The position numbers and the translations under genes are program-made. Source: Chiloscyllium plagiosum (Eukaryota). From it: a stretch of 51,982 bases of DNA. The stretch spans positions 71,846,433-71,898,414 of the forward strand of contig NC_057718.1 in assembly GCF_004010195.1 (NCBI RefSeq), written 5' to 3'. Of this stretch, positions 541-50,644 are shown in pieces; the stretch's first letter is position 1, and every line of letters begins with the position of its first letter. Below the pieces are notes generated by a model, which did not search any database, was not told where the DNA came from, and saw nothing but the letters and a program-made list of their open reading frames with translations.

Positions 541-555
541 CACATTTACATGCAT

Positions 556-684
556 TGAACTAACTCTACCGAAGCTGTTATCCCATCATGAAGTCACCTT
601 TCATAAACACGTGGAAAGTCCTTGATTCTGACACATCATCAGAGTCAGCATCCAAAATGTGAGAATCTGTGACACTCCTCTTAT
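556..684 (-). mobile_element. 3' half of a small Gypsy-type LTR (same family as 46056-46129)
   Basis: Reverse complement ends ...aaaggtgacttcatgatgggataacagcttcggtagagttagttca, aligning with aaagggtgacttggtgactcgggataccggcctctgtgcaattatttca at 46081-46129; it begins at ataagaggagtgtc. Confidence 0.65.
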
Positions 685-732
685 TTTTTTTCTCTCCCAC
701 ACTACCACCTAACTGCGGTAGTGCTTATATTT
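685..732 (-). mobile_element. Extreme 3' tail of the Tx1 element (stem-loop module plus A tail)
   Basis: Reverse complement taagcactaccgcagttaggtggtagtgtgggagagaaaaaaa matches the Tx1 tail module at ~41970, ~42055, ~43960 and ~45165. Confidence 0.8.
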
Positions 733-775
733 TGACAATCCTCTTTATTTTATCTGTGATGCAACTTTCAACGGA

Positions 776-1480
776 CTATATATCTGTTTTACAACATTCC
801 CAGAGCCTACCATTAAACGTGTAAGTCCTGCACTTATTTGTCTCACCAAAATGCAACACCTTGCATTTATCTAAACTAAACTCCATTTGCCACAACTTGA
901 CCCACTGGCACAACTGATCAAGATTTCTTTGTAATCTTAGATAACCTTCCTCACTTGCTACTATACCACCAATTTGGAAGTCATCTGCAACCTTACTAAC
1001 CATGGGTGGCACGGTGGCACAGTGGTTAGCACTGCTGCCTCACAGCGCCAGAGACCCGGGTTCAATTCCAGCCTCGGGTGACTGACTGTGTGGAGTTTGC
1101 ACATTCTCCCCGTGTCTGCGTGGGTTTCCTCCGGGTGCTCCGGTTTCCTCCCACAGTCCAAAGATGTGCAGGTCAGGTGAATTGGCCAGGCTAAATTGCC
1201 CATAGTGTTAGGTAAGGGGTAAACATAGGGGTATGGGTGGGTTGCGCTTCGGCGGGGCGGTGTGGACTTGTTGGGCCGAAGGGCCTGTTTCCACACTGTA
1301 ATCTAATCTAATCTAATCATAACTCCTATAATGTGAAAAGTTGTGGTTCCAACACTGACCCCTGTGGAACGCCACTAGTCACCAGCTGCCATCCTAAGAA
1401 AAACACCCTGTGTCTTCTACCAGTCAGCCAACCCTCTATCCACATCCGTAACTTGCCCGAACACAATGGGACACTCCTCT
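776..1480 (-). mobile_element. CR1 LINE RT fragment split by a SINE
   Basis: SGVPQGSVL at ~1340-1385, then ADDFQIGG...WQMEFSLDKCKVLHFG in 776..1002. Confidence 0.85.
1003..1317 (+). mobile_element. HE1-type tRNA-derived SINE
   Basis: tRNA-like head with A/B boxes (tggcacagtgg, ggttcaattcc), central core, CR1-like tail gggccgaagggcctgtttcc and (taatc)n. Confidence 0.9.
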
Positions 1481-1539
1481 TTTATTCTGTCAACCAGGGT
1501 TCCCTGACTGGACCAGATTACCATCAAGGAACTCATTTT

Positions 1540-1765
1540 TTTTAGATTACTTACAGTGAGGAAACAGGCCCTTCGGCCCAACAAGTCCACCCGGACCCAT
1601 TCCCCTACATTTACCCCTTCACCTAACACTATGGGCAATTTAGCATGGCCAAGCACCCGGAGGAAACCCACGCAGACACGGAGAGAATGTGCAATCTCCA
1701 CACAGTCAGTCGCCTGATGCCGGAATTGAACCCGGGTCTCTGGCACTGTGAGGCACTGTGCCACC
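1540..1765 (-). mobile_element. HE1-type SINE with internal deletions
   Basis: Reverse complement of the 1003-1317 SINE with two gaps. Confidence 0.85.
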
Positions 1766-1859
1766 TCATATTCTGAGATCCAGCTGGCTGACCTCATTAC
1801 AATCACGGCATGCATTATTCTCTGAAGGTAATTAGGCAATTTGAAACAGTTAAAAGTCT

Positions 1860-3092: not shown

Positions 3093-3395
3093 AAGGTGGC
3101 ATGGTGGCACAGTGGTTAGCACTGTTGCCTCACAGCGCCAGAGACCCGGGTTCAATTCCCGCCTCAGGCGACTGACTGTTGGAGTTTGCACATTCTCCCC
3201 GTGTCTGCATGGGTTTCCTCTGGGTGCTCCGGTTTCCTCCCACAGTCCAAAGATGTGCAGGTCAGGTGAATTGGCCATGCTAAATTGCCCCTAGTGTTAG
3301 GTATAGGGGTAAATGTAGGGGTATGGGTGGGTTGCGCTTCAGCGGGTCGGTGTGGATTTGTTGGGCCGAAAGGCCTGTTTCCACACTGTAATCTA
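3093..3395 (+). mobile_element. HE1-type SINE (first of a tandem pair)
   Basis: Full head-core-tail, nearly identical to 1003-1317. Confidence 0.9.
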
Positions 3396-3403
3396 AAAAA
3401 AAG

Positions 3404-3719
3404 TGGGCAGCACGGTGGCACAGTGGTTAGCACTGTTGCCTCACAGCACCAGAGACCTGGGTTCAATACCCACCTCAGGCGACTGTGTGGAGTTTGCACG
3501 TTCTTCCCGTGTCTGCGTGGGTTTCCTCCGGGTGCTCCGGTTTCCTCCCACAGCCCAAAAATGTGCAGGTAAGATGAATTGGCCATGCTAAATTGCCCGT
3601 AGTGTTAGGTGCAGGGGTAAATGTAGGGGAATGGGTCTGGGTGGGTTGTGCTTCGGCGGGTCGGTGTGGACTTGTTGGGCCGAAGGGCCTGTTTCCACAC
3701 TGTAAGTAATCTAATCTAA
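3404..3719 (+). mobile_element. HE1-type SINE (second of a tandem pair)
   Basis: Full head-core-tail ending taatctaatct. Confidence 0.9.
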
Positions 3720-3779
3720 GTCTTCATAATTTCCCTTATTCAAATTAAACACCTTTGCTTCAGAATGAACTACTTCTGG

Positions 3780-5305
3780 TGTAGGAAGGAGGGCCTCAGA
3801 TGTGTGAATCAGTGGGATATGTTTCAGGATGGTTGAGAACTGTATGGGAGGGATGAACCTGGATGGGCACCAATATCCTGACAGGGACGTTTGCTGATGT
3901 CACTGAGTCGGGTTTAAAATAGGATGGTAGGGAAATGGGAAACAGGTCAGCAAGTAAAGTGACCAAGGAGGAGTTAGAGATTAAGATCAGAGGAAGAACA
4001 GACAGGAAGTGGTTACTTAAAACAGTGGAACAGGCGGTCTGAGGAAGGGTCACTGGACCGAAAACATTAACTCTGATTTCAATCCACAGATACCGCCAGA
4101 CCTGCTGAGCTTCCCAGCAATTTCAATTTTTGTTTATGATTTTCAGCATCCACAGTTCTTTTGGATTTTATGTGAGAGAAATTGTGAGCTTAGTCAAACA
4201 GAAAAAGGAGGCATAAAGTAAGATTCAGGAAACTGAAGACAGAGCACATTGAAGAATATAAGAAAGCTGGAAAGAATTTAAACAAGCAGTGAGAAGGGCA
4301 AAATGGGCCATGAAATGTCCTTGGAAAACAGGATTAATGAAAATGCCAAAGTATTTTATATATATATATAAAGGAGCAAGAAGGTAGCTTTGGAAACGGT
4401 ACGTCCACTCAAGGACAAAGAAAGGAATTTATGCGTGGAGCCGGAATAAGTGGGTGAGTTCCTTAACAAATATCTCATTGGTATTCACAAAGCAGACAGA
4501 CATAGTGGATGGTGAGTCTTGCAAGGGCTATGCTTATATTCTAGGGTATGTCGATATAAAAAAAATGTTGGGTGTTTGGAAAAGCATCAACATAGATTAA
4601 CTCTATCCAACAATACTGAGGGAGGTGAGGAAGGAAATTGCTGAGATCTTGTACTAAATCTTGCATCCTGTTTAGTCACAGGTGAGGTCACAGAGAACTG
4701 AAGGATAACCAATATTATTCCTCTACTTCAGAAGGACAACAAGGAGAATCCATGAAATTACAGACCACTGATCCTTACATTTGTGAAATTATTAGCAAAG
4801 ATTCTTAGAGACAGGATTTACAGGAAAAATATGGACTTGTTAGGAATAGGCAGTATGGTTTTCGGGGAATTCATGTCTCACAAACATTTGAGGGAATGGC
4901 CAAGATAAGAGAAGGCAGACTGGTGGATGTAATCTACAGGAATTTAACAAGACCTTTGACCAGGTCGCTCATGGCAAGCCGTCACAAGAGGTGAAGTCAC
5001 ATGGGATCTGCAGTGAGCTGATCAGATGGACAAAGGATTGGCTCAGTCATGGAAGACAGAGAGTAGCAGTGTTTTTCTGAATGGAGATCTGTGATCAGTG
5101 GTGTTCTGCACAGATCAGTGTTGGAACCCATATTGTTAATAATATGTATGCTATAAATGATTTGGAATAGAAAGTAGGTGGTTTGAATAGGAAGTTTGCA
5201 GATGCCGCAAAGACTGGGCAAGACGTTGGTAGTGAGGATCATTTAATCCAGACAAATGTGAGGCAATGTATTTTGGAAGGTCTAATGCAGGTCATAAGTA
5301 TACAA
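3780..5305 (+). mobile_element. Degenerate CR1 LINE (end of ORF1 plus ORF2), interrupted by the Gypsy element and resuming at ~15605
   Basis: GTNILTGTFA (ORF1 end), then ENAKVFY, NYRPLILT, SGVLHRSVLEP, KFADAAK. Confidence 0.75.
4039..4170 (+). mobile_element. Penelope-type pseudo-LTR tail with hammerhead-like core
   Basis: CTGAGGA-agGGTCactgGACC-GAAA followed by ...gccagacctgctgagc...cagcatccacag, as in the tails at 20039 and 39910. Confidence 0.65.
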
Positions 5306-6607
5306 TGTTACAAGGTGAAGTTCAAACCCCTCTGTTAATTAAACCAAATATCCAGAAAAGCTCACCTTGCCTCGTAATCTGTTAAAGTATGAATAACAAA
5401 GAACTCCTAAATTCCACTGGTTAAAGAAAAATAACAATTTATTTTCTTAACTCTTAATAGTGAACACTAAACAACTATTCATAAACCCAAGCCCCCTTTT
5501 CTTAACTACTTACTATCTGACCCCAACTCCATTTAAAAAATGCTGTTCCAGTAATACTGATTAAACGTTACATGAATTTAATCTCAAGATCACACAGTCT
5601 CAGTCTTCTCTGTTGTCTTCAGTCTTCCAGTTACTGATCTTCCTGGGTCGTCTTCTTTCTTTTTTACAGTGAATATGTTTTACATGAAAAGATACCTTTG
5701 ATGAACGTGTTTTCTAACTTCTTTAAGAGCAAGATGTTTGATGGACCATCAGCTCTCCAGCTCTATATGAGTTGCTCACTGTTCCATGGCAGTTGCTCTC
5801 TACCAAATTTCAAAATGCCCAAGTTTTTCTACCACCCCATGAACAGTATACCTCCCCATGTGTTTTAAAAAATTCTCAAGGTCAGGTTCGTAGGAGAGTA
5901 GTCTGACACAGAACAAACGACCAAGAGGCGAGTCTGCTAGAATATGGGCATTTTATTCCCCGCAGCGTCGCCACAACGGGTCTGGCTTATACTCACTCTA
6001 CATGTTACCAAAACTGGGAGCCGTCAGTTCTCGTAGAGCGGTTGCCAACAACCCACGCTCGGCGGTTAAACGTAACCCCGGAGCAGACTCACCGAACTGG
6101 AGACTTTTCCAGCTGATATACTCTTTTCCAGATATAAACATTCATGTGAACAGCAGAGCAAGGCTAAAAAACACATTCCATTCTGGTTACATACAGATAA
6201 GAAGATTCACACGGGACTAAGCAACACCTCCATTCCGGTTAGATTCACACATGTATTGGGACATAATTTTTAACCGTTTCACCACATTCCACTGCTTGGA
6301 ATTTTACACCACACCATGACACATTAAATTATGATAATTTGATTGGCTTCAAAACAATGAAATTCTAATTCCATTGGGTTTTAGTATCCTGGGGCATAAT
6401 TTAAACTGATTGATGACATTTGAATTATTGACAAAATAGCAACCAAAACTCAGGTATTCATTTAACAGCCATTTGCTACATGTATCTATTATGAAACAGT
6501 TCATCTCCCAGCCTTTCTATTTGGATATCTGAACCTGCACTTTAAGTTTACTTCAAAATTCAGAAAACACTTGCTACTTTAAAGTGAACATACATGTTCA
6601 CTTTAAA
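5306..6607 (-). repeat. 3' LTR of the Gmr1-like element
   Basis: Colinear with 11562-12325 apart from the ~5840-6310 insert; abuts the PPT. Confidence 0.88.
5861..6286 (-). mobile_element. Probable solo LTR of another family inserted in the 3' LTR
   Basis: Absent from the 5' LTR; minus strand begins TGTGG and ends AACA, with TATAA (~5990) and AATAAA (~5955) in LTR order; CpG-rich; no clean TSD. Confidence 0.55.
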
Positions 6608-6619
6608 CCTCCCCCCTTT
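6608..6619 (-). promoter_or_regulatory. Polypurine tract
   Basis: Minus-strand aaaggggggagg immediately before the 3' LTR. Confidence 0.8.
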
Positions 6620-6789
6620 AGAAAAAGTGAACCATCATAATGAAAAGATAGTCTCTTTTTTTGTTCTAATTCATAATACCATTACCAAGAAATATATATG
6701 TCATTAACCTAGGTTATACCTTTCATGTTAATTCTGCGCAAATACATAACATTGGAATCAGTCAAATCGTAACGATACTTTTCCCTTTA

Positions 6790-8290
6790 AATCTGTGATA
6801 ATATATCTGCTATCACATTTTTACAACCAGCAACACATACAATTTGTAAATTAAAAGTCTGTAATGTAAGACTCCAACAAAATTGTCTCATATTTTTGCC
6901 TTTAAAGTTTCCAAAAATGTGAGAGGATTGTGGTCCATGTACACAAACGTCTCCAACACATTGTCACATAAGCATAAAATACTTTAAGGCCAGTAACAAA
7001 CTTAATACCACTTCTTGCATTTTGAGAAGATTTGTAGGTCAGGTTGAGGTTCTGGATATAGGTTTGCTCACTAAGCTGGAAGGTTCATTTCCAGATGTTT
7101 CATCATCCTACTAGGTAATATATCAATGGGCCTCCGGGCGAAGCACTGCTGATGATTCCGTCATTCTATTTATAATAAATATAATATAATAAAATATTAT
7201 AAATATAAATAAATAAATAGAATAAATACTCATAAATAGAAAGCAGGAATCATCAGCAGTGCTTCGCCCGGAGGCCCAATAAGATGTTACAGAGTTGTGT
7301 GACGAAATCTCTGGAAACAAATCTTCCAGCTCAGTGAGCAAATCTACATTAATACCTCTTTCTCAATGGTAGAATATTTTCTCTGATGGATGTTGAGTTT
7401 CTTTGAAAAGTAGCCAATTAGACGATCAATTCCATAATCATCTCCCTGAATCAATACAGCTCCAACCCCTATATCTCTGGTATCAATTGTAACTTCAAAA
7501 TGTTTCATTTTACTTGGGGTCAACCTTCCATGTCCCGAGAAAGTCATTTTTGCCTTCACAAATTCTGTTTTCTTTAAGTTTATTACCAATTTTGCTTATC
7601 ATAATCATGGCACTGCTAACTGTACCATGTGATCTTTCCATGACTCGCTAAAGATCACCACATCATCCAGATAAACTACACAATTTGTTAATCCAGCCAT
7701 AACTCTGTTCATGAGTCTCTGGAATGTGGCTGGTGTGTTCTTCATTCCAAAGAGTATCACTTTGAATTGATATAGCTCACTCGGGATTACAAATGCAGAA
7801 CCGTATTTCGCCTTCTCTGATAAATGGTACCTGCCAATAGCCATGCAGTAAGTCTAATTTTGTGATGTAAGTGGCTTGTCCAACCTTCTCTATACAATCC
7901 TCCAACCTTGGTATTGGCTATGCGATTTTGTTATAGCGTTGACCTTCTGATAGTCCACCTAAAATCGTTCAGTCTCATCAGGTTTGGGAACTAACATGAT
8001 CGGTAAACTCCACTCACTCTGACTCTGTTCAATGAAGTCTTTGTTGAGCATCACATCCACTTCCTTATGGACCTGTGTGGCATTGAAAGGATTAAGCCTA
8101 TAGGGGTGTTGTTTTATCAGAACAGTATTCCCTACTTCCACCTCATGCACAATTCCTGCATCTGTCCTCAATACTGCTGCAGCAAACCTTTCAACTCGGT
8201 TCTTTGCCCCTGAGACAGATAGCTCACTATCCCCTTCCTCAAGAACTTCCTCCTTTTTTAATGTATTTTGAGGCACATCAAAATCCACAC
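6790..8290 (-). pseudogene. Gypsy RT and RNase H remnants
   Basis: IKQHPYRLNP, WSLPIMLVPKPD, FGMKNTPATFQRLMN, VYLDDVVIFS, IGVGAVL, YFSKKL, YSTIEKE, NVIADILS. Confidence 0.92.
7026..7348. mobile_element. Head-to-head inverted Penelope-type pseudo-LTR inserted in Gypsy RNase H
   Basis: 33-bp perfect inverted repeat 7127-7159/7246-7278 with looser outer arms; decayed GAAGATGTTAC...GTGACGAAA core; ttaatacc occurs on both sides. Confidence 0.7.
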
Positions 8291-8419
8291 CATCTGGATT
8301 TCAGTCCTCCCTCTGCAAGGGAGTAACTAATACCTGTTTGTCTAGTTCCCTGTCTCTATTATAGCAAGATTTCAACTTTTGCCCGATATAGGTTTTTCCT
8401 ATCTGACATCTTTACCAGA

Positions 8420-9195
8420 GAGTTTACCTGACTCAATTTTTCTCAATTTGATAGGGACCGCTAATCCTGGCTTTGAAGGGATCTACTACCACTGGTAACA
8501 ATACTAGTATGTCTTCCCCAAAGGAAAACATTCAAATTTTAGAGCTTTTATCTGCTTCTTGCTTCATTCTATATGCTGTGCCCTCTTCATGTGCCATTTA
8601 GGTAATGCAACGACCTCATGTAACCTCTCCTTCACCTCAGATACATAAACCAAGTGTGAGATCTCTGGCTTCAGTCGTATCAATTTTTCGTTGATTAGTT
8701 TTAAAGGCCCTCTCACTTCATGTCCAAATATTAATTCAAAGGGAGTAAATTGAGTAGATTCATTTGGTGCATCTCTCATGACAAACAATATGAATCAGAC
8801 GACTTTTTCCCAATTATTCAAGTAATCCTGACACTACACTCTTAACATGGTCTTCAGGGTCTGATGCCACCTTTCCAAGGCTCCCTGTGATTCAGGATTG
8901 TAAGCACTTGATTTAAAGTGCTCTATGCCTAAACAATCCATGACTTCCTTAAACAGCCTAGCAGATCAGCCTTTGTCAGATAATCTCCATAGCAAGTAAA
9001 GAAATCTATCAACTCGTCCATCACCCTTTCTGGCTTAGTGTTCCATAATGGAATTGCCTCTGGAAATCTGGTAGACACATCCATTATGGTTAGCAAGTAC
9101 TGGTTCCCACTTTTAGTTTTAGGGAGGGGATCTGGTGCACTTTCACCTGGTGCACTTTCACCTATTTCTCCTCTACATTTACATGCCATTTTCAT
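8420..9195 (-). pseudogene. Gypsy integrase remnant located upstream of RT
   Basis: PLPKTKSGNQYLLTIMDVSTRFPEAIPL, FTPFELIFGHEVRGPL, and an SGPY motif at ~8455. Confidence 0.92.
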
Positions 9196-9607
9196 CCTAG
9201 GATTCTATCCTTAAGATGATAACCCTCGGAGAATACATTCTGATTCCTGTTCTGAGTAAAGCTTTGTAATAACTATCTTCTATTGTCTCATCTTCCTGTT
9301 GCAAGTCCATTAGACTTTCAGGACCTTCTACCTGTTCAGGTTTTTCCTGCACCATTACATCAAATAGGTGTCAGCTAACTGAACCTCAACTCCTTCATCT
9401 TTCTCTTTAGCTTTTCCTTCTTACTATAAGTTATGACAATGTGATATTGTTACTACACAGTCTGGAAAAATTCCAGGGTACTTTTCTTTTAACTCCTCAG
9501 TTCCCTGGTTTTCTATTGACTTCTCTACCACAAAGAGTGTTGCTCCCACTTTGGATCCTGTTGGGTCATTCTCAAGAACAAACTATATTCCTGGAACTGA
9601 TATGCTG

Positions 9608-9850
9608 TTAATCATTCCAACTGTTACTTCCCCAGTCTTGGTCTGGCTCTCCAACCTGATCTTGTACAGAGGAACTGCTAAATTTCTGTCCATCTATTCC
9701 ACAAATTATCACTCTCTTGGGTAACATATCAGTAAGAGTGCAAATTCTTTTATCTTTTATTATTAGAGACTGATTAGCTCCCATATCTCTCAAAATTGTA
9801 ACTCCTTTTCTTTCTCCCCATGTTCTACCTGAGTAAACTTTACCCATAGA
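9608..9850 (-). pseudogene. Aspartic protease remnant
   Basis: VTILRDMGANQSLI (degenerate D-T/S-G-A). Confidence 0.8.
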
Positions 9851-9989
9851 GGTGAAGTCTTCTTAGAGATCGGGCCCTGCCTAGGCTGTGCACTCTCCTG
9901 CAGCTCCTCAACTTTTCCTGGGTTTCCTTTACCATTCCACTAATCCCACTGGTTTAGTCTCTTTTACAACATCTTTTCCCATGGAACCT

Positions 9990-11390
9990 TTCTTCAACGA
10001 GCAACACTGTGACTTTACAGTTTCCCACCTTACCACAGCTGAAAGACCTGAGGCCATTCATATCCTTTTCCACCCTCTTGGGCTTCTTTTTTCACCTGTG
10101 GTAGACAATTACCTGTGTGCCCTACTCTTTGTTTTGTTCAGTGGGATCTCCCTTCTCTCAATTTCTATCCCTCACAGGATGACTTGCTTGCCGGAAACTA
10201 AATTTTGCCTTATGCACCAATGCATATTCATCTGCCATCTCTGCTGCTCTTCTCAAATCTTGACCTTGCTGTTCATCCACATGAATTCTTATGATCTTGG
10301 GAAGTGAGTTTTTAAACTCCTCCAGCAGAATAATCTCTCTTAGAACCTCATATGTCTTGTCTATTTTTAAGGCCCGCAGCCATCTATCAAAATTGCTATG
10401 TTTAATTCTTTCGAACTGAACATAAGACTGACCTGGTTCCTTCTTTATGTTTCTGAGGCGCTGTCTATACTCTTCTGGTACCAATTCATAAACACTTAAA
10501 ATAACCTGTTTCACATTGGCATAATCTCTTGACACATCTGACAGCACTGCAAATACCTCACTAGCTCTGCCTCCCAGCTTAGTCTGAACTAGCATTACAC
10601 ACAAGTTTTCTGGCCATTCCATCTGCCTAGCCAATTTTTCAAAGGAATTAAAGAAGGCTTTGACATCTTTCTCATCAAAATGTGGCAATGTTTTAACATA
10701 TTTATATACATCACTATCTTCTCCCTTCATCTTCATCCTGTTAACTTGACATTCCTGACTAATTTGCAACTTCTGAAGTTCAAATTCTCTCTCTCTTTCT
10801 TCTCTCTCTGTTTCTCTTTGCTCAACTAAGAACCTTCCCTCCCTTTCATTATGACTAGATTAGATTACCTACAGTGCAGAAACAGGCCCTTCAGCCCAAC
10901 AAGTCCACACCGAGCCTCCGAAGAGTAACCCGCCCACCCCCATTTCCCTCTGACTAATGCACCTAGCATTACGGGCAATTTAGCATGGCCAATTCACCTG
11001 ACCTACACACATTTGGACTGTGGGAGGAAACCCACGCAGACATGGGGAAAATGTGTAAACTCCACACAGACAGTCACCCGAGGCTGGAATCGAACCTGGT
11101 GCTGTGAGGCAGCAGTGCTAACCACTGAGCCACCGTGCTGCCCATTTAACTCCAGTTGCCTCATTTGCAATTTAAGTTTTTCTAACTCAACTGCACTTAT
11201 CTGTTTCTCTGATACACCTAAGTGCTTGATCGACTCCATTAAAATTTTAACCTTACTTTTGTCCCTGGTTAAACCCAATTCTAACCTATTTGCTAATTCT
11301 AAAATCCTCTGCCTTCCTAAATTTTCTTGGCAAATTTGGGAAGCATCTTTAAACCCCAGAACCTCTTTAGCAATGTTAATAGCCATCTCA
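9990..11390 (-). pseudogene. Gmr1-type gag with SCAN-like capsid region and CCHC knuckle remnant
   Basis: LPHFDEKDVKAFFNSFEK, YELVPEEYRQRLR, LREIILLEEFKNSLP, AAEMADEY; CFSCGKVG-like remnant at ~10030-10050. Confidence 0.88.
10855..11141 (-). mobile_element. HE1-type SINE inside gag
   Basis: Reverse-complement SINE head, core and tail. Confidence 0.88.
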
Positions 11391-11537
11391 CTCACTATTA
11401 ATTTAACCAACCACAAGTAACCGAAATTAAACAAATTTTCTCACCTAAGTTTAAATTTAAAGATCAAGGAAACTAATCGCAAAGTATTTAAATCTGGTGG
11501 GACCTTTCATATCCCAAATCTGTTCCAATCTGTCCAA

Positions 11538-11558
11538 ATCCTGGATGGCGAGCCCCCA
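11538..11558 (-). promoter_or_regulatory. Primer-binding site, tRNA-Pro-like
   Basis: Minus-strand TGGGGGCTCGccaTCCaGGAT, 3 nt after the LTR end, versus canonical PBS-Pro TGGGGGCTCGTCCGGGAT. Confidence 0.8.
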
Positions 11559-11561
11559 ATC

Positions 11562-12325
11562 TGTTATAACACAGAGGTCAAACCCCTCTATTAATTAAGC
11601 TAAACTCACAGAAAAGCTCGCCTCGCGATCCGTTAAAATAGTAGTGACAGAGAACTCCTAAATTCCACTGTTTAAAGAAAAATAACAATTTATTTCCTTA
11701 ACTCTAATAGTGAACACTAAACAACAACTATTCATAAATCCAAGCCCCTTTTCTTAACTACTTACTATCTGACCCCAACTCTATAAAAAAATATGTTGTT
11801 CCAATAACACACTTATTAACAGTATATCAATGTAATCACAAGATCACAACCTCTCCGTCTTCTCTGCTCTCTTCATTCTTTCAGCTGCTGATCTCCCTGG
11901 GTCATTATCTTTCTTTTTTACTGCAAGGATATTTTACATGAAAAGTTACTTTTGACGGACAGTGCTTTCTAATTTCTTTGAGAGCAAAATGTTAGATGGG
12001 CCGTCAATTCTCTGGCTCTGCTGTTCAATGGCAGTTGGTCTCTGCTCAATTTTCAAAATGCCTGCATATTTTATATGCCTCCCCGACCCCCGCATGACAC
12101 ATTAAATTCTTATAATTTGATTGGTTTCTGGGTGCCAAAATGGCAAAATTGAAATTCCGTTGGGTTTTAGTATCCTGTGTACAATTTAAATTGATTGGTT
12201 AAATTTGAATTATTTTGGAAACACCAACCAAAACTCAGATATCTATTTAACAGCCATTTGCTACATGTCTCTATTTTGGAACAGCTAGTCTCCCAGCCTT
12301 TCCATTTGGGCAGCTGAGCCTACAC
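11562..12325 (-). repeat. 5' LTR of the Gmr1-like element (its terminal ~25 bp displaced to 15575-15600)
   Basis: Colinear with the 3' LTR; tgaacatacatg recurs at 15575 and 6585. Confidence 0.85.
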
Positions 12326-17684: not shown

Positions 17685-17995
17685 GATTAGATTACTTACA
17701 GTGTGGAAACAGGCCCTTCGGCCCAACAAGTCCACACCGCCCCGCCGAAGCGCAACCCACCCATACCCCTACATTTACCCCTTACCTAACACTACGGGCA
17801 ATTTAGCATGGCCAATTCACCTGACCTGCACATCTTTTGTGACTGTGGGAGGAAACCGGAGCACCCGGAGGAAACCCACGCAGACACGGGGAGAACGTGC
17901 AAACTCCACACAGTCAGTCGCCTGAGTCGGGAATTGAACCCGGGTCTCTGGCGCTGTGAGGCAGCAGTGCTAACCACTGTGCCACCATGCCGCCC
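17685..17995 (-). mobile_element. HE1-type SINE
   Basis: Full-length reverse-complement copy. Confidence 0.9.
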
Positions 17996-18379
17996 ATCAG
18001 TACAACTCTTCGTCATTTTCCTTATTGTTGATCCTGCCTAAACATCGAATAACTTTGAAAGTTCACTTTCCAGTCCTGGTCAGCATGCAGCCAAGTTTCT
18101 CTCATATAGATCACTCCCATGCATCTTTAATTGTGACTTTAGATCATCTACCTTGTTGGTCTTAACATTGTCTTTTTGACATTATTCCATTTTTGAAATA
18201 TATTTGATGCTCAGCTTTGTTTCTCCCATCATCTAGCTTCCCTAGATCTTTTAGACTTCTTGTTACCAACTTTATTTCCTTCAAATCTGGGTTATCTCTC
18301 AAGTTCCTGTCTTTCTGAAAAGCTAGTTAAAACTGACGCCTGGAAGCCTAACTTGAGGAGGGTCAACCCTCATTTGTCA

Positions 18380-18894: not shown

Positions 18895-20130
18895 ACAGAT
18901 TTCTACTACAAACCCACCAGATCCTACAGCTACCTGGACTACACCTCCTCCCACCCCCCCCCCCCCATAAAAACGCTATCCCTTACTCCCAATTCCTCTG
19001 CCTCCACCACGTCTGCTGCCAGGTGGATCAATTCCACTCCAGAACATCCTAGATGGCCTCCTTCTTCAAGGACCACAATTTCCCCTTCCACACGGTCAAC
19101 AATCCCCTCCAGTGCATCTCCTCCACTTCCAGCACTTCTGCCCTTGAACCTCACCTCTCCAACCACAACGAGGACAGAACCTCCCTCGTCCTTACTTTCC
19201 TCCCCACCAACCTCCGGATGCATTGCATTATCCTCCACCATTTCTGCCACTGACAAACAGACCCCAACCATCAGAGATATATTTCCCTCCCACACCCACC
19301 TGCCTTCTATAGAGACCATTCCCTCCGTGACTTCCTTGTTAAGTCCACACTCCCTACCAACACACCCTCCACTCCCAGCACCTTCCCTTGCCAATGCAAG
19401 AGGTGTAAAACTTGTGCCCACACCTCCCCCTCACCTCCATCCAACACCCCAAAGGATCCTTCCACATCCAACAGAGATTTTCCTGTACCTTCACACACAT
19501 CATCTACAATGTCTGTTGCTCTCGATGTGGTCTCCTCTACATTGAGGAGACAGGATGCCAACCTGCAGAACGTTTCAGAGAACATCTCTGGGGCACACGC
19601 ACCACGGCTGAAGTCTCCAACTCCCCATGCCACCACATGCAAGTCCTGGGCCTCCTCCACGGCCAAATTCTAGTCTCCCGATGTCTGGAGGAAGTATGCC
19701 TCATGTTCCGCCTTGGGACCCTCTAACCACATGGGATCAATATCAATTTCACCAGATTCCTCATCTCTCCTCACTCCACCTTATCCCACATCCAACCCTC
19801 CAACTCGGCATCGCACTCTTGAACTGCCCTACCTGTCCATCTTCCTTTTCATCTATCCGCCCCACCCTCTGCTCCAACCTATCACCTTCACATCTACCCC
19901 TTACCTAACACTACTGGCAATTTAGCATGGCCAATTCACCTGACCTGCACATCTTTGAACTGTGGTAGGAAACCGGAGCACCCGGAGGAAACCCACGCAG
20001 ACACGGGGAGAATGTGCAAACTCCACACAGTCAGTCGCCTGATGAAGAGCTTATGCTTGAAATATCGACTCTCCTGTTCCTCGGATGTTGACTGACCGGT
20101 TGTGCTTTTCTACTACCACACTTTTTGGCT
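18895..20130 (+). mobile_element. Penelope-like element 3' part (RT thumb, GIY-YIG endonuclease, tail)
   Basis: TDFYYKPT..SYLDYTSSHP; QRFSCT...IIYNVCCSRCGLLYIEETG...ERFREH; CTGATGA core at 20039. Confidence 0.9.
19890..20042 (-). mobile_element. Internal SINE fragment embedded in the Penelope 3' region
   Basis: SINE core only, with no head or tail. Confidence 0.85.
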
Positions 20131-36499: not shown

Positions 36500-38970
36500 G
36501 TACGAGTACTATAGATGGGTCAGTTTTGTCCAGTGTGTGCAGGAGGGCTTCCTGACACAGTATGTAGACAGGCCAACAAGAGGCGAAGCCACATTAGATT
36601 TGGTACTGGGTAATGAACCCGACCAGGTGTTAGACTTGGAAGTAAGTGAGCACTTTGGTGATAGCGATCACAATTCTGTTATGTTTATTTTAATGATAGA
36701 AAGGGTTAGGTGTATACCACTAGGCGAGAGCTACAGCTGGGGAAAAGGCAATTATGATGCGATTAGGCAAGATTTAGGAAGCATAGGATGGGGAAGGAAA
36801 CTGCAGGGGATGGGCACATTAGAAATGTGGAGCTTATTCAAGGAAAAACTCCTGTGTGTCCTAGATAAGTATGTACCTGTCAGGCAGGGAGGAAGCTGTA
36901 GAGCACAGGAACCGTGGTTTACGAAGGAAGTGGAATCTCTGGTCAAGAGGAAGAAGGCGGCTTATGTTAGGATGAGATGTGAAGGCTCAGTTAGGGAGCT
37001 TGAGGGTTACAAGGTAGCCAGGAAAGACCTGAAGAGAGAGCTCAGAAGAGCCAGGAGGAGACATGAGATGTTGTTGGCGGATAGGATCAGGGTAAACCCT
37101 AAGGCTTTCTGCAGGTATTTAAGGAATAAAAGAATGACAAGAGTAAGATTAGGGCTGAAAATGTGTTGCTGGAAAAGCGCAGCAGGTCAGGCAGCATCCA
37201 TGGAACAGGAGAATCGACGTTTCGGGCATAAGCTCTTCTTCAGGAAGATTAGGGCCAATCAAGGATAGTAGTGGGAAGTTGTGTGTGGAGACAGAGGAGA
37301 TAGGGGAAGCACTTAATGAATATTTTTCGATAGTATTCACTCTAGAAAATGACAATGTTGTTGAGGAGAATACTGAGATCCAGGCTACTAGACTAGGTGT
37401 GATTGAGGTTCACAAGGAAGAGGTATTAGAAATCCTGCAGAGTGAGCCGGATGGGATTTATCCTAGGACCCTCTGGGAAGCCAGAGAGGAGATTGCCGAG
37501 CCTTTAGCATTGATCTTTAAATCGTCATTGTCTACAGGAATAGTGCCAGAAGACTGGAGGACAGCAAATGTGGTTCCCCTGTTCAAGAAGGGAAGTAGAG
37601 ACAACCCAGGTAATTATAGACAAGTGAGCCTTACTTCAGTTGTTGGTAAAGTGTTGGAAAAGGTTATAAGAGATAGGATTTATAATCATCTAGAAAAGAA
37701 TAATTTGATTAGGAATAGTCGGCACAGTTTTGTGAAGGGTAGGTCGTGCCTCACAAACCTTATTGAGTTCTTTGAGAAGGTGACCAAAGAGATAGATGAG
37801 ACTAATCCGGTTGATGTGGTGTATATGGATTTCAGCAAGGCGTTCGATAAGGTAGGCTATTGTACAAAATGCGGAAGAATGGAATTGTGGGAGATATAGC
37901 GGTTGGATCAGTAATTGGCTTGCTGAAAGAAGACAGAGGGTGGTGGTTGATGGGAAATGTTCATCCTGGAGTCCAGTTACCAGTGGTGTACCGCAAGGAT
38001 CGGTGTTGGGACCACTGCTGTTTGTCATTTTTATAAACGACCTGGATGAGGGCGTAGAAGGGTGGGTTAGCAAATTTGCAGATGACACTAAGGTCGGTGG
38101 AGTTGTGGATAGTGATGAATGATGTTGTAGGTTACACAGAGAGACATAGATAAGCTGCATAGCTGGGCTGAGAGGTGGCAAATGGAGTTTAATGCAGACA
38201 AGTATGAGGTGATTCATTTTGATCGGAGTAACCGGAATGCAAAGTACTGGGCTAATGGTAAGATTCTTGGTACTGTAGATGAGCAGAGAGATCTTGGTGT
38301 CCAGGTACACAGATCCTTGAAAGTTGCCACCCAGGTTGACAGGGTTGTTAAGAAGGCATACAGCGTTTTAGTTTTTATTAATAGAGAGATCGAGTTCTGG
38401 AACCATGAGGTTATGCTACAGCTGTACAAAACTCTGGTGCGGCCGCACTTGGAGTATTCTGTACAGTTCTAGTCACCGCATTATAAGAAGGATGTGGAAA
38501 TTTTGGAAAGGGTGCATAGGAGATTTACTAGGATGTTTCCTGGTATGGAGGGAAGGTTTTACGAGGAAAGGCTGAGGGACTTGAGGCTGTTTTCGTTAGA
38601 GAGAAGAAGGTTGAGAGGTGACTTAATAGAGACATATAAGATAATCAGAGGGTTAGAAAGGTTGGACAGGTGGACCCCTTTTCCAAGTACGGTGACATGA
38701 GGATGAGGGAGCACAGCTTTAAATTGAGGGGTGATAGATATAGGACAGATGTCAGAGGTAGTTTCTTTACCCAGAGAGTAGTAAAGGTATGGAATGCTTT
38801 GCCTGCAATGGTAGTAGATCCGCCAACTTAAGTACATTTAAGTCGTCATTGGACAAGCATATGCACGTACATGGAACAGTGTAGGTTAGATGGGCTTCAG
38901 ATTGGTATGACAGGTCAGCGCAACATCGAGGGCCGAAGGGCCTGTACTGTGCTGTAATGTTCTAAGTTCC
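36500..38970 (+). mobile_element. 5'-truncated CR1/HER1 LINE ORF2 and tail
   Basis: [59 protein letters not shown]; tail gggccgaagggcctgtactg. Confidence 0.95.
37156..37244 (-). mobile_element. 89-bp Penelope-tail insertion with 11-bp TSD and intact-looking hammerhead core
   Basis: aagattagggc at 37145-37155 and 37245-37255; minus-strand cCTGAAGAagagcttatgcccGAAACGTCgattc. Confidence 0.9.
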
Positions 38971-39099: not shown

Positions 39100-40815
39100 G
39101 GATATGAGAAACATGGATCATTGATGGACAAAGATACTAGATTGCAGGATTACCATGCTTTTAAAGTAACCCATAACTCCAGTTTTTTCAGTGTCCCCTC
39201 ATGGTCTCATATCCAAACCTGAAAAAGGTCCACAGGGTATCAAAGGTTGTAGGTGTTGCAATTACAGAACATAGTCACAGGTTACTTATCGGCACACCTT
39301 GATTGAAAGGTAGGTTAGTTGGAAGGTTAGTTAACTCCGATAACTTTAAGTCACGCAAAATCTGCTGGCACACCACACTCTTCACTTTCATCCAAGGCCC
39401 CAAACAGTTCAGGTGAGACAGAGATTCACCTACCACTCATCCAACCTAGTTTACTGCATCAGGTGCTCCCAATATGGTCGTTTCTACATCGGGGAGACCA
39501 AACGTAAACTTCGGGAACGTTTTGCCAAGCATCACAGCCGGGCCTGCAGGGGCCGACTGGACCTCCCCGTCACTGTCCATTTTAATTCCCTTTCCTACTC
39601 CCTTTCTGACATAACCATCCTTAGCCTTCTCCACTGCCACAATGAACCACACCGCAAATTGGAGGAACAACACCTCATTTTCTGCCTGGACAGCCTACAG
39701 TCCAGAGGACTCAATATTGAGTTCTCCAATTTTAAATAACTTCCTTCCCATCCCCAACTCTCTTCAATTCCTCCTTGCCACCATCCAAATTAATTCCTCT
39801 CATTGATCAACCAGGTCATACCCTCTATCTGTCTTCACCTATCCCCACTTCATCACCCTGCCCCAGCCACCCGCTTTATCTGCAGCTCCCCCTACACCCA
39901 CCCCCACTCCAGAAGAAGGGTTACACCCGAAACATCAACTTCTCCACTTCCTGATGCTGCCTGGCTTGCTGTGTTCTTCCAGCCTCCTGCCAGTTTATTT
40001 TAGATTCCAGCATCTGCAGTTTTTTTTCTCTCTTTAACCTTATGTCAGGACAAAGTATGTTACAAACCATATACACCCCAGTGGATCTACTGAAAACTGA
40101 GATTCAGATTCTTGAAGGGTGTTGTCAAAGGCATCAAAAAGGCCAAAGGATCTATTATGAAAGGATAAATGAGTTAGGATAGCCGAAAGATGACAAATAC
40201 AATTACAGAAAACAAACTAGCAGAAAGGGAACCTCATCACAGTCTGGCAGAGATAGATTCAGACATAATAGGGGGAATTGCAGATGAACCCTACATGACC
40301 CAAATCTGACTTTACATGCAGATGGACATTCACTAACATTTTTCGACAGGCAGGACTATTGTAGATCACTGGGGGAGACAATGGCAAAACGGGGTTTAGA
40401 GGAAGCTTTTTTAGCCCTGATAGTGCAACTTCATAGGACTGACAGAAGCTTTAAAACTAGCACCGGGAAAGAGAATTAACTTTGACATACACAGCCAAAA
40501 TGCCTACACAATGACATAGAACAAGGGAATGTCACATGAAATATAAGAACATAATTCGAGTAATAGTAGAGGCAACACAATATCCTACAGAAATAGTAGT
40601 TATAAAAATAAGGCATATAGAAAAGTGGAGACAGAAGCAGAATGTAGGAGTATACAAGCAGACATAGTAACCAGAGAGGCACTGGAAACAGTGGTCCATA
40701 GGGCTATTAAAGTGACAACCATTGGTCCAGAAGAGATGAATATCGAAAAATTAAAGGCAGAGGTATGTACAAAGGAAAAACTAAGATGTCGACAGAATGG
40801 AGTGAAAAGAGAATG
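39100..40815 (+). pseudogene. Probable endogenous retrovirus pol relic (RT connection, RNase H), split by a Penelope fragment and possibly continuing after 46130
   Basis: IGLTEALKLAPGKRINFDIHSQNAY; EATQYPTEIVVIKI-AYRKVETEAECRSIQADIVTREA resembles retroviral RNase H (ELIALTEAL..GK.VNIYTDS; GN..AD..AK.A). Confidence 0.6.
39370..40030 (+). mobile_element. Penelope GIY-YIG fragment and tail
   Basis: RQRFTYHSSNLVYCIRCSQYGRFYIGETKRKLRERFAKH...GLNIEFSNFK; decayed core cagaagaagggttacacccgaaac at 39910. Confidence 0.92.
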
Positions 40816-41449
40816 TTGCTGTAGTGATGGAACCCGGTTGGCCTCATTGGCTATGAGGTCACTGATTGGGGTTGTTAACCTGGGCCAATCAGGAAAGCCC
40901 TGGTGACTAAAGTATCCAGGAGATTACGTTAGGGCCGGGGTGTCCTTGGAGAAGGAGCACGCGGTGTCCACCAACACCCTGGAGTTGTTCAGGGAGAGGT
41001 GGGCGCCGCAGGGAGTGGAGTGCATCATTTCTCCCTCCAACTCTATTTTGATTTAGTCCCTACCCTCCCCCTCACTGTTTTTGATCACACAGCACTGTCC
41101 TTTGATGTGAAGGGCAGTGTTTGTCACTGGCCACCCGGGTGTTTTCCTATCTTCCTGGTGGTGGAATTTGAATAAAGATTCGTGCACTTTTGTGTCTTTC
41201 ACTGTGTCTCACACCTGCGCACACACACACACTGGGTGCTAAAAAAAAAAGAAAAAAAAGAGAAAAAAAAAGTATCCAGGAGAATACGTTAGGGCCGGGG
41301 TGTCCTTGGAGAAGGAGCACGCGGTGTTGACCAACACCCTGGCATTGTTCAGGGAGTGGTGGGCGCCGCAGTGAGTGGAGTGCATCATTTCTCCCTCCAA
41401 TTCTATTTTGATTTAGTCCCTACCCTCCCCTTCACTGTTTTGATCACAC

Positions 41450-41567
41450 NNNNNNNNNNNNNNNNNNNNNNNNNNNNNNNNNNNNNNNNNNNNNNNNNNN
41501 NNNNNNNNNNNNNNNNNNNNNNNNNNNNNNNNNNNNNNNNNNNNNNNNNNNNNNNNNNNNNNNNNNN
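41450..41567. other. Assembly gap (118 N)
   Basis: Run of n. Confidence 1.
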
Positions 41568-44062
41568 AAAATAAAGAAAAAAGGAAAAAAAAAATTAAAA
41601 AATGAAAATAAAAAAAGAAAGAAAAAAAAAAGTATCCAGGAGATTACGTTAGGGCCGGGGTGTCCTTGGAGAAGGAGCACGCGGTGTCTACCAACACCCT
41701 GGAGTTGTTCAGGGAGAGGTGGGCGCCGCGGGGAGCCGCAAGCATTATTTCTCCCTCCAACTCTATTTGGATTTAGTCCCTACCCTCCCCTTCACTGTTT
41801 TGATCACACAGCATTGCCCTTTGATGTGAAGGGCAATGTTTGTCACTGGCCACCCAGGTGTTTTCCTATCTTCCTGGTGGTGGAATTTGAATAAAGATTT
41901 GTGCACCTTGTGTCTCTCAACTGTGTCTCACACCTACACACACACACCATGGGTGCTGGGGAAAAATAAGCACTACCGCGGTTAGGCGGTAGTGTGGGGG
42001 TTAAATAAAAAAAAGAAAAAATAAACAGGAGAATTGGGTGGTGGGAAAAAAATAAGCACTACCGCAGTTAGGCGGTAGTGTGGGGGTTAAAAAAGAAGGG
42101 GGAAAAAAAAGGAAAAAAAAAAGAAAAGAAAAATAAATAAACAGGGGATCATCATTTCTCCCTCCAATTCAAAAAAAATAATAAAAAAAAATAAAAAAAA
42201 AAGTATCCAGGAGATTACGTTAGGGCCGGGGTGTCCTTGGAGAAGGAGCACGCGGTGTCGACCAACACCCTGGAGTTGTTCAGGGAGAGGTGGGCGCCGC
42301 AGGGAGTGGAGTGCATTATTTCCACCTCCAACTCTATTTTGATTTAGTCCCTACCCTCCCATTCACACTCACCGCAGTTAGTCGGTAGTGTGGGGGTTTA
42401 ATGAAAGAAAGAAAAAAAAATAATAAACAGGACTGTTGATCACAAAAAAAAGTATCCAGGAGATTACGTTAGGGCCAGGGTGTCCTTGGAGAAGGAGCAC
42501 GCGGTGTCTACCAACACCCTGGAGTTGTTCAGGGAGAGGTGGGCGCCGCGGGGAGTGGAGTGCATTATTTCCACCTCCAACTCTATTTTGATTTAGTCCC
42601 TACCCTCCCCTTTACTGTTTTGATCACACAGCACTGCCTTTGATGTGAAGGGCAGTGTGTGTCACTGGCCACTCGGGTGTTTTACTATCTTCCTGGTGGT
42701 GGAAATTGAATAAAGATTCGTGCACTTTGTGTCTTTCACTGTGTCTCACATGTATACACACACACCATGGGTGCTGGGGGAAAAATAAGCACTACCGCAC
42801 TAAAAAAAGAAAAAGAAAAAAATAAACAGAAGTGTCAGTCCCTACCCTCCCCTTTACTGTTTTGATCACACAGCACTGCCTTTGATGTGAAGGGCAGTGT
42901 TTGTCACTGGCCACCCGGGTGTTTTCCTATCTTCCTGGTGGTAGAATTTGAATAAAGATTCGTGCACTTTGTGTCTTTCACTGTGTCTCACACGAATACA
43001 CACACACTATGGGTGCTGGGGAAAAAAATAAGCACTACCGCACTTAGATGGTAGTGTGGGGGTTAAATTATATAAAAAAATAAACAGGAGTGTCATTTCC
43101 CCCTCCAAAACGATAAACAGAAATGTCAGTCCCTACACTAAAAAAAAAGTATCCAGGAGATGGGCTGGACGCTGCCGCAGGACGTAGCGAGCAGGGCAGC
43201 GGTAGACGTCCGGTACGTGGACACCGCTATCCGACGCCTTAAAACGGCGGTGCTTGGACCCGACGTAGTCCACCAGTTGGAGGACGCTCAGGTGTGCGGT
43301 GGGACCCCGTCCGCACTCACCCCAGCCCCGACGGAATTTCACATTGGCCCCAAGGTCCCGTACTTCCCCCGGGAGCCTGTGCCCCACAACCTGAGCCGCC
43401 TCCGGAATTTTAATTTTGTTACCTTCCAGGGGGTAAAAAGGCGGGCCCTGTATAGATTACTGCTGCACACCGTCCACCTCTTCTCCCTCATCCACCGTCC
43501 GGACGGTGGGAGGGCAGGTCTGAAGACCTCCTCGTGGGTCTGCTCCTGGGCCTGGCCAAACTGGCCATCAACAGGTCGAGGCAGTGGGCCGTGGAGGGGG
43601 TCGTTAGGGCCGACTGCCTGTCCCTCTTCCGCGGTTACGTTACAGCCTGGGTGTCCTTGGAGAAGGAGCACGCAGTGTCCACCAACACCCTGGAGTTGTT
43701 CAGGGAGAGGAGGGCGCCGCAGGGAGTGGAGTGCATCATTTCTCCCTCCAATTCTATTTTGATTTAGTCCCTACCTTCCCCCTCACTGTTTTGATCACAC
43801 AGCACTGCCCTTTGATGTGAAGGGCAGTGTTTGTCACTGGCCACCCGGGTGTTGTCCTATCTTCCCGGTGGTGGAAATTGAATAAAGATTCGTGCACTTT
43901 GTGTCTTTCACTGTGTCTTACTCGTGCACACACACACACCATGGGTGCTGGGGAAAAAATAAGCACTACCGCGGTTAGGCGGTAGTGTGGGGGTTAAAAA
44001 AAAGAGATAAACAGCAATGTTAAAGGCACAGCTAAAGAAAATTAAAAAAAAGTATCCAGGAG

Positions 44063-44980
44063 ATGGGCTGGACGCTGCCGCAGGACATAGCGAGCAGGGC
44101 AGCGGTAGACGTCCGGTACGTGGCCACCGCCATCCGACGCCTTAAAACGGCGGTGCTCGGACCTGACGTAGTGCACCAGTTGGAGGATGCTCAGGTGTGT
44201 GGTGGGATCCCATCCGCGCTCACCCCAGCCCGGACGGTATTTCACATTGCCCCCAAGGTCCCACCACAAGGAGCCAGTGCCCCACAACCTGAGCCGCCTC
44301 CGGAATTTTAATTTTGTTCCCTTCCAGGGGGTAAAAAGGAGGGCCCTATACAGACTGTTGCTGCACACCGTCCACCTCTTCTCCCTCACCCACCGTCTGG
44401 ACACGCCTTGGCGTGCCCATTTGCCACCGGGTGGTGGGGATCTCCAGTGGAGGGCTCTCTACGCGGGAGTCCTCCCCCTTTCTCTCGGGGACCTAGGGTG
44501 GAGGGTGCTGCACGCAGCAGTACCCTGCAACCGCAGATTGCGGTGGTTCACGGACTCCCAGCCCAACTGCTTGTTCTGTGGCGCTGTGGAGTCCGTGGAG
44601 CATGTATATATTGGGTGTGGGCGTTTGCACTCCCTTTTTGATTTTCTGTAAGACCTCCTCCTCTGCTTTTGGTTGCACTTCAGTCCCACGCTCTTGATCT
44701 TTGGGCACCTGGTACGGAGGAGGGAGGGCAGGTCTGAAGACCTCCTCGTGGGTCTGCTCCTGGGCCTGGCCAAACTGGCCATCAACAGGTGCCAGCAGCG
44801 GATGTGGAGGGGGTCGTTAGGGCCGACTGCCTGCCCCTTTTCCGCGGTTACGTTCGGGCCCGGGTGTCCTTGGAGAAGGAGCACGCTGTGTCCACCAACA
44901 CCCTGGAGTTGTTCAGGGAGAGGTGGGCACCGCAGGGAGTGGAGTGCATTATTTCCCCCTCCAACTCTATTTTGATTTAG
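44063..44980 (+). pseudogene. Tx1 ORF2 C-terminal region with CCHC zinc knuckle
   Basis: DLGWRVLHAAVPCN...CLFCGAVESVEHVYIGC; frameshifted, with a stop at ~44650. Confidence 0.92.
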
Positions 44981-45265
44981 TTCCTACCTTCACTGTTTGA
45001 TCACACAGCACTGCCCTTTGATGTGAAGGGCAGTGCTTGTCACTGGCCACCCGGGTGATTCCTATCTTCCTGGTGGTGGAAATTGAATAAAGATTCGTGC
45101 ACCTTGTGTCTCTCACTGTGTCTCACACCTACACACACACACCATGGGTGCTGGGGAAAAATAAGCACTACCACAGTTAGGCGGTAGTGTGAGGGTTAAT
45201 TAAAAAAAAGAAAGAAAAAAGTGTTTGATCACACAGCATTGAGAAAAAAAAAGTATCCAGGAGAT

Positions 45266-46055
45266 AGCCTGGGCAGGTACCAGGACAAGCTGTCCTAGAG
45301 GTGGTCGAAAAGTGTCAGAGCAGCCGAGAGCCAGAAGACGCGTAGGGGCGGGTTGAGTTCCAGAAGGCTTGTGGGCTACCCTGCACGCTGTCGTCCCAGG
45401 GAAGGGGACGGGCTGTCCTAGAGGTGGCCGGAAGGTGTGCCAGGATAGCCCACTGGCCGGATGGCGCATCGGGGTGGGTGAGAGCCCAATGGTACGTAAG
45501 GACAGACCGCGAGCCAGAAGGCGGGTAGCCATCCTCAGCACTGTCACCCTGGGCAGGTACCGAGGCGGGCTGCCCCAGAGGTGGTCGAAAGGTGCTGAGG
45601 GTGGTTAGTGAAGCCGGAAGATGGGTAGGCCGTCCTGACCGCTGTCACCCCGGGTGGATACTGGGGCGGGCTGTCCTAGAGGTGGTCAAAAGGTGAGTCA
45701 GGGCGGACCGAGAACTGGAAGGGGCATGGGGTGGTCCAAGAGCTGGAAGGTACGTAGGGGCGGGCTGCCTTAGAGTGGTGGGAAGGTGGGAGGGAAAGAG
45801 GCTTACTAGGTCTGTATTGTATGCACTTTTTTTATGTAATTGGATTGTCCTTTTATGTACAAATGTCACTGTCACTGTCTTTTATATGTGAAACTGGGAT
45901 TTGAGATTTGTCCTCCTCTCCCTGTAAACTGGTTGAACGGCAGGGTTTGGGGCCTAACTTTGCTGCTCCTCTCCATTGTAAAATTCCTGTTGTATACAGC
46001 TGTAAATGTTAACTATTTTTTGTAAACTGTTTTGTAATTTGTTTAATAAAATATT
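45266..46055 (+). mobile_element. 3' part of a second non-LTR family (GC-rich internal repeats, T-rich 3' end) at the same target
   Basis: Four ggctgtcctagaggtggtc-type repeats; homologous to minus-strand 50680-51200; ends aataaaatatt before gtaaccaggagatg. Confidence 0.7.
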
Positions 46056-46571
46056 GTAACCAGGAGATGCACAAGTTAATAAAGGGTGACTTGGTGACTC
46101 GGGATACCGGCCTCTGTGCAATTATTTCACAATCGTTGCACCACATACAACCGCACGCCAATGTGGTATTGTCACCTGTGAAAATTGGAGGGAGTGTTAA
46201 TTAAGAACTTGATGATTCATAGAAAATGGGTGAGGATCTGCTACTTTTCTAGCATAACTGAGGAGAAAAGTTACCTATGGCATCAATGTTCTTTCTGATT
46301 AAATTACAGTTTAACGCCAGGAGAAATCTGCATTTCAAGGATCAGCCATGAATAAAACAAATATATTTCAATGCTACAGAAGATCGATATTTCCTTGCCA
46401 GCATAAGGAATTTCAAAGATGTTTCTTTTCAACAAAAATAGTAGAATCCTCAACAGGAGTTGCAAAAGACATGATCAACTTATAAATTTTGAAATTAAAT
46501 AGCTGCTTGTTGCTTTGAGAGAAGGTAAACATTCTTTTAATTTTAGATCATAATTTGAAGGAATTTATAAA

Positions 46572-50637: not shown

Positions 50638-50644
50638 TTTATTT

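Follow-up and report, generated by a model that had tools for sequence, protein, structure and literature searches.

The stretch of DNA considered here, called the window throughout, comprises 51,982 nt of Chiloscyllium plagiosum (NC_057718.1: 71,846,433-71,898,414, forward strand), and all coordinates below are positions within it. It is repeat-rich animal DNA, holding reverse transcriptase-bearing LINE relics, a SCAN-domain LTR-type element and GIY-YIG remnants. Close to its start, the minus strand carries a solo LTR broken up by several inserts, whose parts are listed here in the LTR's own direction:

1811-1815, minus strand: upstream ATGCA copy of the LTR's 5-base duplication, matching 551-555
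1765-1810, minus strand: LTR 5' half, part 1, with the TG start; weak alone, placed by colinearity and the ATGCA duplication
1539-1764, minus strand: SINE-like repeat inserted within the LTR 5' half, between ATATGAG (1771-1765) and AAATGAG (1538-1532)
1487-1538, minus strand: LTR 5' half, part 2, with a decayed CCAAT-like box at 1511-1502 (alignment of 1536-1474 to 40853-40922)
1470-1486, minus strand: first copy of the target motif, AATAAAAGAGGAGTGTC, lying at the LTR's TATA-like position (alignment to the main copy)
751-1469, minus strand: piece from the interior of an old CR1-type LINE, covering reverse transcriptase sequence, in the LTR's sense (colinear alignment to 37915-38335)
about 1004-1316, antisense: SINE-like repeat interrupting the CR1 fragment
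734-750, minus strand: target motif copy 2, AAATAAAGAGGATTGTC, with one G>T change; partly like the CR1 continuation too
692-733, minus strand: 5'-truncated Tx1-family 3' end of 42 bases, with a 10-pair hairpin at 699-724 (tail identity and fold)
684-691, minus strand: A8 run closing the inserted tail; the final A also belongs to the motif (sequence read)
671-685, minus strand: target motif copy 3, AATAAGAGGAGTGTC, the 3' duplication of the tail insertion (sequence read)
556-670, minus strand: LTR 3' half with the TTCA end (alignment of 613-556 to 46070-46129)
551-555, minus strand: downstream ATGCA of the 5-base duplication flanking the solo LTR, the same five bases as at 1811-1815

Part of this had been noticed before. 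The sequence-only reading saw at 556-732 a Tx1 tail hairpin and A run followed by ATAAGAGGAGTGTC and the 3' half of a small LTR family, and sequence and alignment both bear it out: on the minus strand the tail (733-692) passes into the A run (691-684), ATAAGAGGAGTGTC (684-671) and then 115 bases of LTR (670-556). What it described is real, and incomplete, since the LTR 5' half lies at 1470-1810 and the locus runs on to 1815. Taken whole, the locus has the signature of a solo LTR, with TG at 1810, CA at 556, ATGCA on both sides, and CCAAT-like, TATA-like and AATAAA-type signals in order; a decayed polyadenylation-like signal is found near 605-597 in the 3' half. The motif, 15-17 bases long, occurs three times (1486-1470, 750-734 and 685-671), the CR1 fragment lying between the first two copies and the Tx1 tail between the last two.

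The other inserts are of older or unrelated kinds. The fragment at 751-1469 has neither a CR1 3' tail nor an A run, but it is colinear with the LINE near 38 kb at 37915-38335 (scores 67 and 110, each reached by none of 1000 shuffles), an element whose RVT_1 domain lies at 37159-37896. The SINE-like insert at 1539-1764, of which similar copies are seen at 3095-3720 and 17690-17998, is unrelated to targeting. For the fragment and the repeats, the labels CR1 and SINE are names that we take to apply. Elsewhere in the window, a decayed LTR-type element occupies about 5300-12300 of the minus strand, whose first frame encodes a SCAN domain (E 2e-10) and which has long end repeats of its own, unrelated to the small LTR. 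A GIY-YIG remnant lies at 39350-39736 on the plus strand and a similar-looking C-rich stretch at about 18900-19800; both are presumably Penelope-like.

A second copy of the small LTR is split by a much larger array some 40 kb away, on the plus strand:

40820-40924, plus strand: LTR 5' half, with the local target AAAGTATCCAGGAGAT at its end (alignment)
40925-46056, plus strand: at least eight inserted units, each opened by AAAGTATCCAGGAGA (eight exact copies)
46057-46129, plus strand: last target copy, TAACCAGGAGAT, and the LTR 3' half with AATAAA and the TTCA end (sequence read)

This main copy has TG...CA ends, CCAAT and AATAAA, with no clear flanking duplication, and both LTR copies within the window are solo. 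Its own duplicated target is AAAGTATCCAGGAGA, closed by TAACCAGGAGAT. Seven of its units are of the same Tx1 family as the 733-692 tail, and the last is of a second, non-coding family. Motifs of the ATAAACAG type are also present, inside the units and after tails; since they occupy this position and are unlike the local target, they must have come in from donor loci which were stacks already. An N run at 41450-41567 makes the number of units a minimum. Between 40924 and 45249, the Tx1 3' region has one starting point common to five units and a second common to two more; units with a common start differ by several percent and end differently, often in an A run that comes too early and follows a piece of yet another copy that was carried in. 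Such shared starts, which are unexpected of independent truncations, may reflect donor stacks or local duplication.

That the two LTRs belong together follows from local alignment with shuffled controls, as blastn at word size 7 does not link them. In the 3' half, 613-556 matches 46070-46129 in 42 of 60 columns, with a score of 46 where the best of 1000 shuffles reached 36; among 2582 window segments it is the top match outside the main copy, and the next unrelated segment scores 28. In the 5' half, 1536-1474 matches 40853-40922 in 47 of 71 columns (0 of 1000 shuffles), and with the motif omitted it is still the top non-self match among 3445 segments (41 against 30). The outer piece at 1765-1810 is weak alone, its score of 21 against 40820-40858 being reached by 22 of 1000 shuffles. 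A lack of alignment between 556-684 and 46056-46129, named beforehand as a refutation, is thus not what is seen: the last 58 bases align, and the first 55-60 bases after the motif have no counterpart in the main copy; without inserts, the copy at 551-1815 measures 223 bases and the main copy 166. One further candidate was rejected: as an LTR 5' half, 46640-46724 scores 12 against the main copy, a value equalled by 958 of 1000 shuffles, and its score of 30 against the copy at 551-1815 rests on an A run in the SINE tail.

The two halves also fix where the insertions occurred. In the 5'-half alignment the duplicated targets of the two loci start within about one base of each other and end within 2-3 bases, so that independent insertions at one position and in one sense are seen at two loci, with junctions within 1-3 bases. 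The orientation had been called opposite; this holds for the chromosome strand, which alone differs, and not relative to the LTR, since the inserts run in the LTR's sense at both loci. A single shared ancestral insertion is excluded by LTR copies that are only 66-70% alike, of unequal lengths, with different inserts and different outer flanks. The earlier claim, that a diverged LTR copy was hit independently at the homologous position, is therefore upheld: both halves align, and the locus has its own AAAGAGG spelling of the motif. It is hardly conceivable that an LTR already holding a tail was simply multiplied, by LTR retrotransposition or segmental duplication. Such hitchhiking would explain why both loci hold one tail family in one sense, yet for these two loci it is contradicted by LTRs less alike (66-70%) than the tails within them (83-90%), and the inserts, truncation points, duplicated motifs and outer flanks all differ. 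As an internal control against a one-off tandem duplication, which is how it had been put forward, the locus does exclude the duplication, although one extra locus is weaker support for targeting than the read junctions described below.

The inserted tail belongs to an abundant family. Its 42 bases (733-692) are identical at 37-38 positions to four of the five main-array tails and at 35 to the fifth. The hairpin pattern is found at 700-723 with one mismatch and is one of six matches in the window, a number that none of 100 shuffles gave (mean 0.00); the tail hairpin folds into a 10-pair stem with z -5.6 (0 of 200 shuffles). Among viral contigs the pattern had no match, and among metagenome contigs none in two spellings. 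A 3' A tail, 5' truncation and target duplication, all traits of the Tx1 clade, are present in the family. Its coding end is continuous with the tail in the copy at 44064-45200, and this ORF2 end (44256-44959) is 46% identical to Xenopus Tx1 ORF2 (the UniRef YTX2 protein) over 125 residues, at E 3e-31. Against Polypterus LORF2, a fish L1-type ORF2, no similarity was seen, these being the two named references compared directly; a zf-RVT match is below the curated cut-off. Since the window holds neither reverse transcriptase nor endonuclease of the tail family, the clade placement rests on the ORF2-end similarity. The closest relative, P0001 (62%), contains no more of a reverse transcriptase than its end and, aligned over 99% of its length, shows 41% identity to Xenopus Tx1. 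A stretch at 48080-49055 matches Tx1 ORF2 residues 1-327 at 37-39% and cannot be tied to the family of the 733-692 tail. Judged by its ORF2 end, the abundant LINE family at both loci belongs to the Tx1 clade.

What follows the tail was then read from sequencing data, used in place of a logo of assembly flanks. The mapping reference was 42850-43165, a copy ending in the tail, an A-rich run and ATAAACAGGAGTGTC, and four of the 24 listed runs served as samples, namely raw reads and a contig set for organism A and a contig set each for organisms B and C; contig depths were not taken as copy numbers. Mean raw-read depth in organism A peaks at 5896 in the 3' UTR, falls to 3330 at the tail end and to 357 over TAAACAGGAGT, and is about 1, the single-copy level, in unique sequence beyond 43102. 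This difference points to hundreds of genomic copies in which tail, A run and motif are joined. About 357 of 3330 tail-covering reads continue into ATAAACAGGAG and about 150 reach GTGTCA, where chance would give about 0.1 read, and for the 14-base motif the excess over chance is more than thousandfold. The tail itself varies: C at 43049 is seen in 836 of 3337 raw reads in organism A, and in the contigs of B and C it accounts for about three quarters of the depth. With this C the hairpin stem is preserved through a G-U pair, and the hairpin variants (43043 and 43049) differ between organisms. The search pattern that had been suggested for the tail catches the minority variant in the best-matching organism.

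The motif is not tied to one end of the element. The 3' breakpoints in front of it vary (42933, 42976, 42989 and 43027, in one read of A and contigs of organism B), and so do the restarts behind it (42862, 42879, 42882, 42904, 42932, 42984 and 42998, across all three organisms), which makes it a target duplication and no part of the tail. Among the 12 joints listed of the 163 with letters between the pieces, 11 clearly involve the motif, and where two element pieces are joined, three of four carry it in letters that did not come from the reference and the fourth loosely; since the mapping reference contained the motif, these counts are biased towards it. Joints from 42991-42993 onto the motif were excluded, the letters between being not known and the reference diverging there. 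The read evidence covers tail-motif junctions; the LTR context beyond the motif comes from the two loci of the window alone. It is very improbable, then, that the motif is part of the element's own 3' end, gained by read-through from a master copy. The ATAAACAG copies of the main array, which came in with their units, are what such an origin would predict, but it is contradicted at 551-1815, where the motif, in a local spelling, flanks the tail left and right and also closes the LTR 5' half, and by reads in which the motif follows prematurely ended copies without the tail.

How strict the preference is can be judged only in part. Dominance of the motif behind the tail had been named as support for targeting. 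Reads that continue onto the motif make up at least 11% of tail reads, or 14% after a rough correction for read length; the true share may be higher, since clipping removes reads whose A runs differ (at 43067, 651 A-rich loose ends). For crocodilian families, a Tx1 family is counted as target-specific when one type of sequence makes up more than 20% of its flanks, and the present 11-14%, as a lower bound, falls short of that by this count (PMC4494074). It is possible, though less likely, that there is a weak preference in place of homing: an abundant and relaxed L1-like family that nicks many A-rich sites, for which the LTR TATA site is a self-renewing hot spot taking about a tenth of copies. 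The 11-14% share speaks for this, as do the local motifs, which differ at the two loci, their overlap consisting of position and AGGAG only. Against it stand the more than thousandfold excess of the 14-base motif, the fact that the share is a lower bound, and the motif's separating tandem pieces in three organisms. Between such a weak preference and true targeting the difference is one of degree only. On balance we hold, with a probability of roughly 0.8, that 551-1815 is a solo LTR whose TATA-like site was cut by the enzymes of an abundant LINE family of the Tx1 clade, and that this family prefers the motif genome-wide. In the main copy the site comes after CCAAT and before AATAAA, which suggests that it is a working TATA box.

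At the locus itself, the three motif copies read AAAGAGG or AAGAGG where the main array and the reads have AAACAGG, and this private spelling marks them as local duplicates. Two events would most likely explain them, namely insertion of the 42-base tail and capture of the tail-less CR1 fragment at the same cut. Copy 2 is the delicate point. CR1 copies continue with ...AGGGTTGTTAA, which is like AGGATTGTCAA of motif copy 2 in 9 of 11 bases and weighs against a separate duplication. It is thus possible, if the less probable course, that a composite RNA from a donor locus, made of CR1 fragment, motif-like stretch and Tx1 tail, was inserted once between copies 1 and 3; the insertion would still be targeted, with no tail-less capture, and the G>T change of copy 2 would be explained by the CR1 continuation. 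Standing in the way of this are the match between copies 2 and 1, which agree in 15 of 16 aligned bases and need a single gap, the local AAAGAGG spelling, and the first ten bases of copy 2, which have no match to CR1. The two-event reading is also in keeping with the reads, where copies without the hairpin end on the motif as well; these suggest relaxed RNA recognition, into which capture of a CR1 fragment would fit.

In target-primed reverse transcription, a nicked target strand primes synthesis on the RNA, and this general scheme underlies the steps proposed here by analogy with Tx1L. The ORF2 endonuclease would nick the lower strand at the start of AATAAA(C/G)AGGAG, and from the freed T-rich end the RNA would be reverse-transcribed, starting at its A tail. 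The site would be duplicated by another nick, 15-17 bases on, after GTGTC. Each duplication would then be a renewed target, so that inserts stack head to tail.

Whether an LTR is needed at all is a separate matter, on which the elements to the right of the main array bear. At 46727-49055 on the plus strand lies the 5' part of another Tx1-like element, with an endonuclease region 37-39% identical to that of Xenopus Tx1. It follows TAACCAGGAGA and is opened by TAACCAGGAGAT; no LTR 5' half was found in front of it, which counts against the reading preferred above. A non-coding family with internal repeats of about 101 bases is present at 50370-51805 (minus strand) and 45265-46056 (plus strand), the two places being 72% alike; two copies stand in tandem at 50.2-51.8 kb. 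It shares a leader with the element at 46739 (0 of 1000 shuffles) and ends on TA(A/G)CCAGGAGA, and is a candidate non-autonomous partner of a second Tx1 lineage. Since both the 46727 element, at which no LTR was detected, and the 50.7-kb non-coding family border TA(A/G)CCAGGAGA, the enzyme probably reads the motif, with the LTR supplying many copies of it. A loose A-type motif scan of the window is uninformative (36 sites against 32.5 in shuffles), whereas the stricter TA[ATG]CCAGGAGA gives 11 sites against 0.03. In viral contigs, the 15-base motif was found in 93 stretches, none of which matches LTR pieces or the tail beyond the pattern, and these were set aside as chance.

A bolder and rather doubtful extension would be that at least two Tx1 lineages in this animal group read a core-promoter motif, a TATA-like box with AGGAG, in variant spellings. 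The LTR promoter upstream would then transcribe promoter-less truncated stacks, to be copied onward as composites, and unrelated or even tail-less RNAs such as the CR1 fragment would be trapped at the same cut. The LINE would thereby both silence and exploit the promoter of a rival retrotransposon, its endonuclease being a promoter-specific nuclease kept across at least three species.

Aimed insertion of this kind has well-described precedents. In Xenopus laevis, the endonuclease of Tx1L nicks almost only its target in vitro (PMC1950540). The family at 551-1815 resembles Tx1L in an ORF2 end 46% identical to it and in inserting into another transposon, but the target of Tx1L is the DNA transposon Tx1D and not an LTR promoter region (PMC1950540). 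Among crocodilians, Tx1-9_AMi targets Harbinger, and the Tx1-Mar LINEs and SINEU-3 occupy fixed positions in Mariner-N4_AMi with a duplication of about 16 bases; tandem copies there sandwich a duplication and are read as sequential insertions, and other RNAs are moved in trans to the site (PMC4494074). The fixed position in another transposon, a duplication of similar length, the stacks separated by duplications and the probable use of the site by other RNAs are what Tx1-Mar and SINEU-3 have in common with the family studied here; they differ from it in having a DNA transposon as target and, for SINEU-3, 313 of 347 copies on target, far above the 11-14% found here (PMC4494074). Closest in choice of target are two crocodilian Tx1 families, Tx1-8_Crp and Tx1-4_AMi, for which a preference for LTR retrotransposons is reported (Kojima 2015, PMC4494074). 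They share LTR elements as targets with the family at 551-1815 and belong to another host lineage; the main text of that paper gives neither the LTR site nor a motif, and the TATA site may be in print already (PMC4494074). A literature search, to whose scope Repbase and most subscription journals did not belong, found no report of a Tx1 family at an LTR TATA site or of the motif.

Aimed Tx1 insertion is thus real here, but its principle has already been published for frog and crocodilian members of the group. The known Tx1 targets are extended by an exact motif where an LTR family presumably has its TATA box, and three organisms supply junctions in evidence. Should the preference prove strict, one more sequence-specific AP-type endonuclease would be available for comparing target changes, and one retroelement would be seen to disable or borrow another's promoter. 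Set beside the known systems, the locus at 551-1815 contributes mainly a clean anatomy of three duplications and the possible capture of a foreign RNA.
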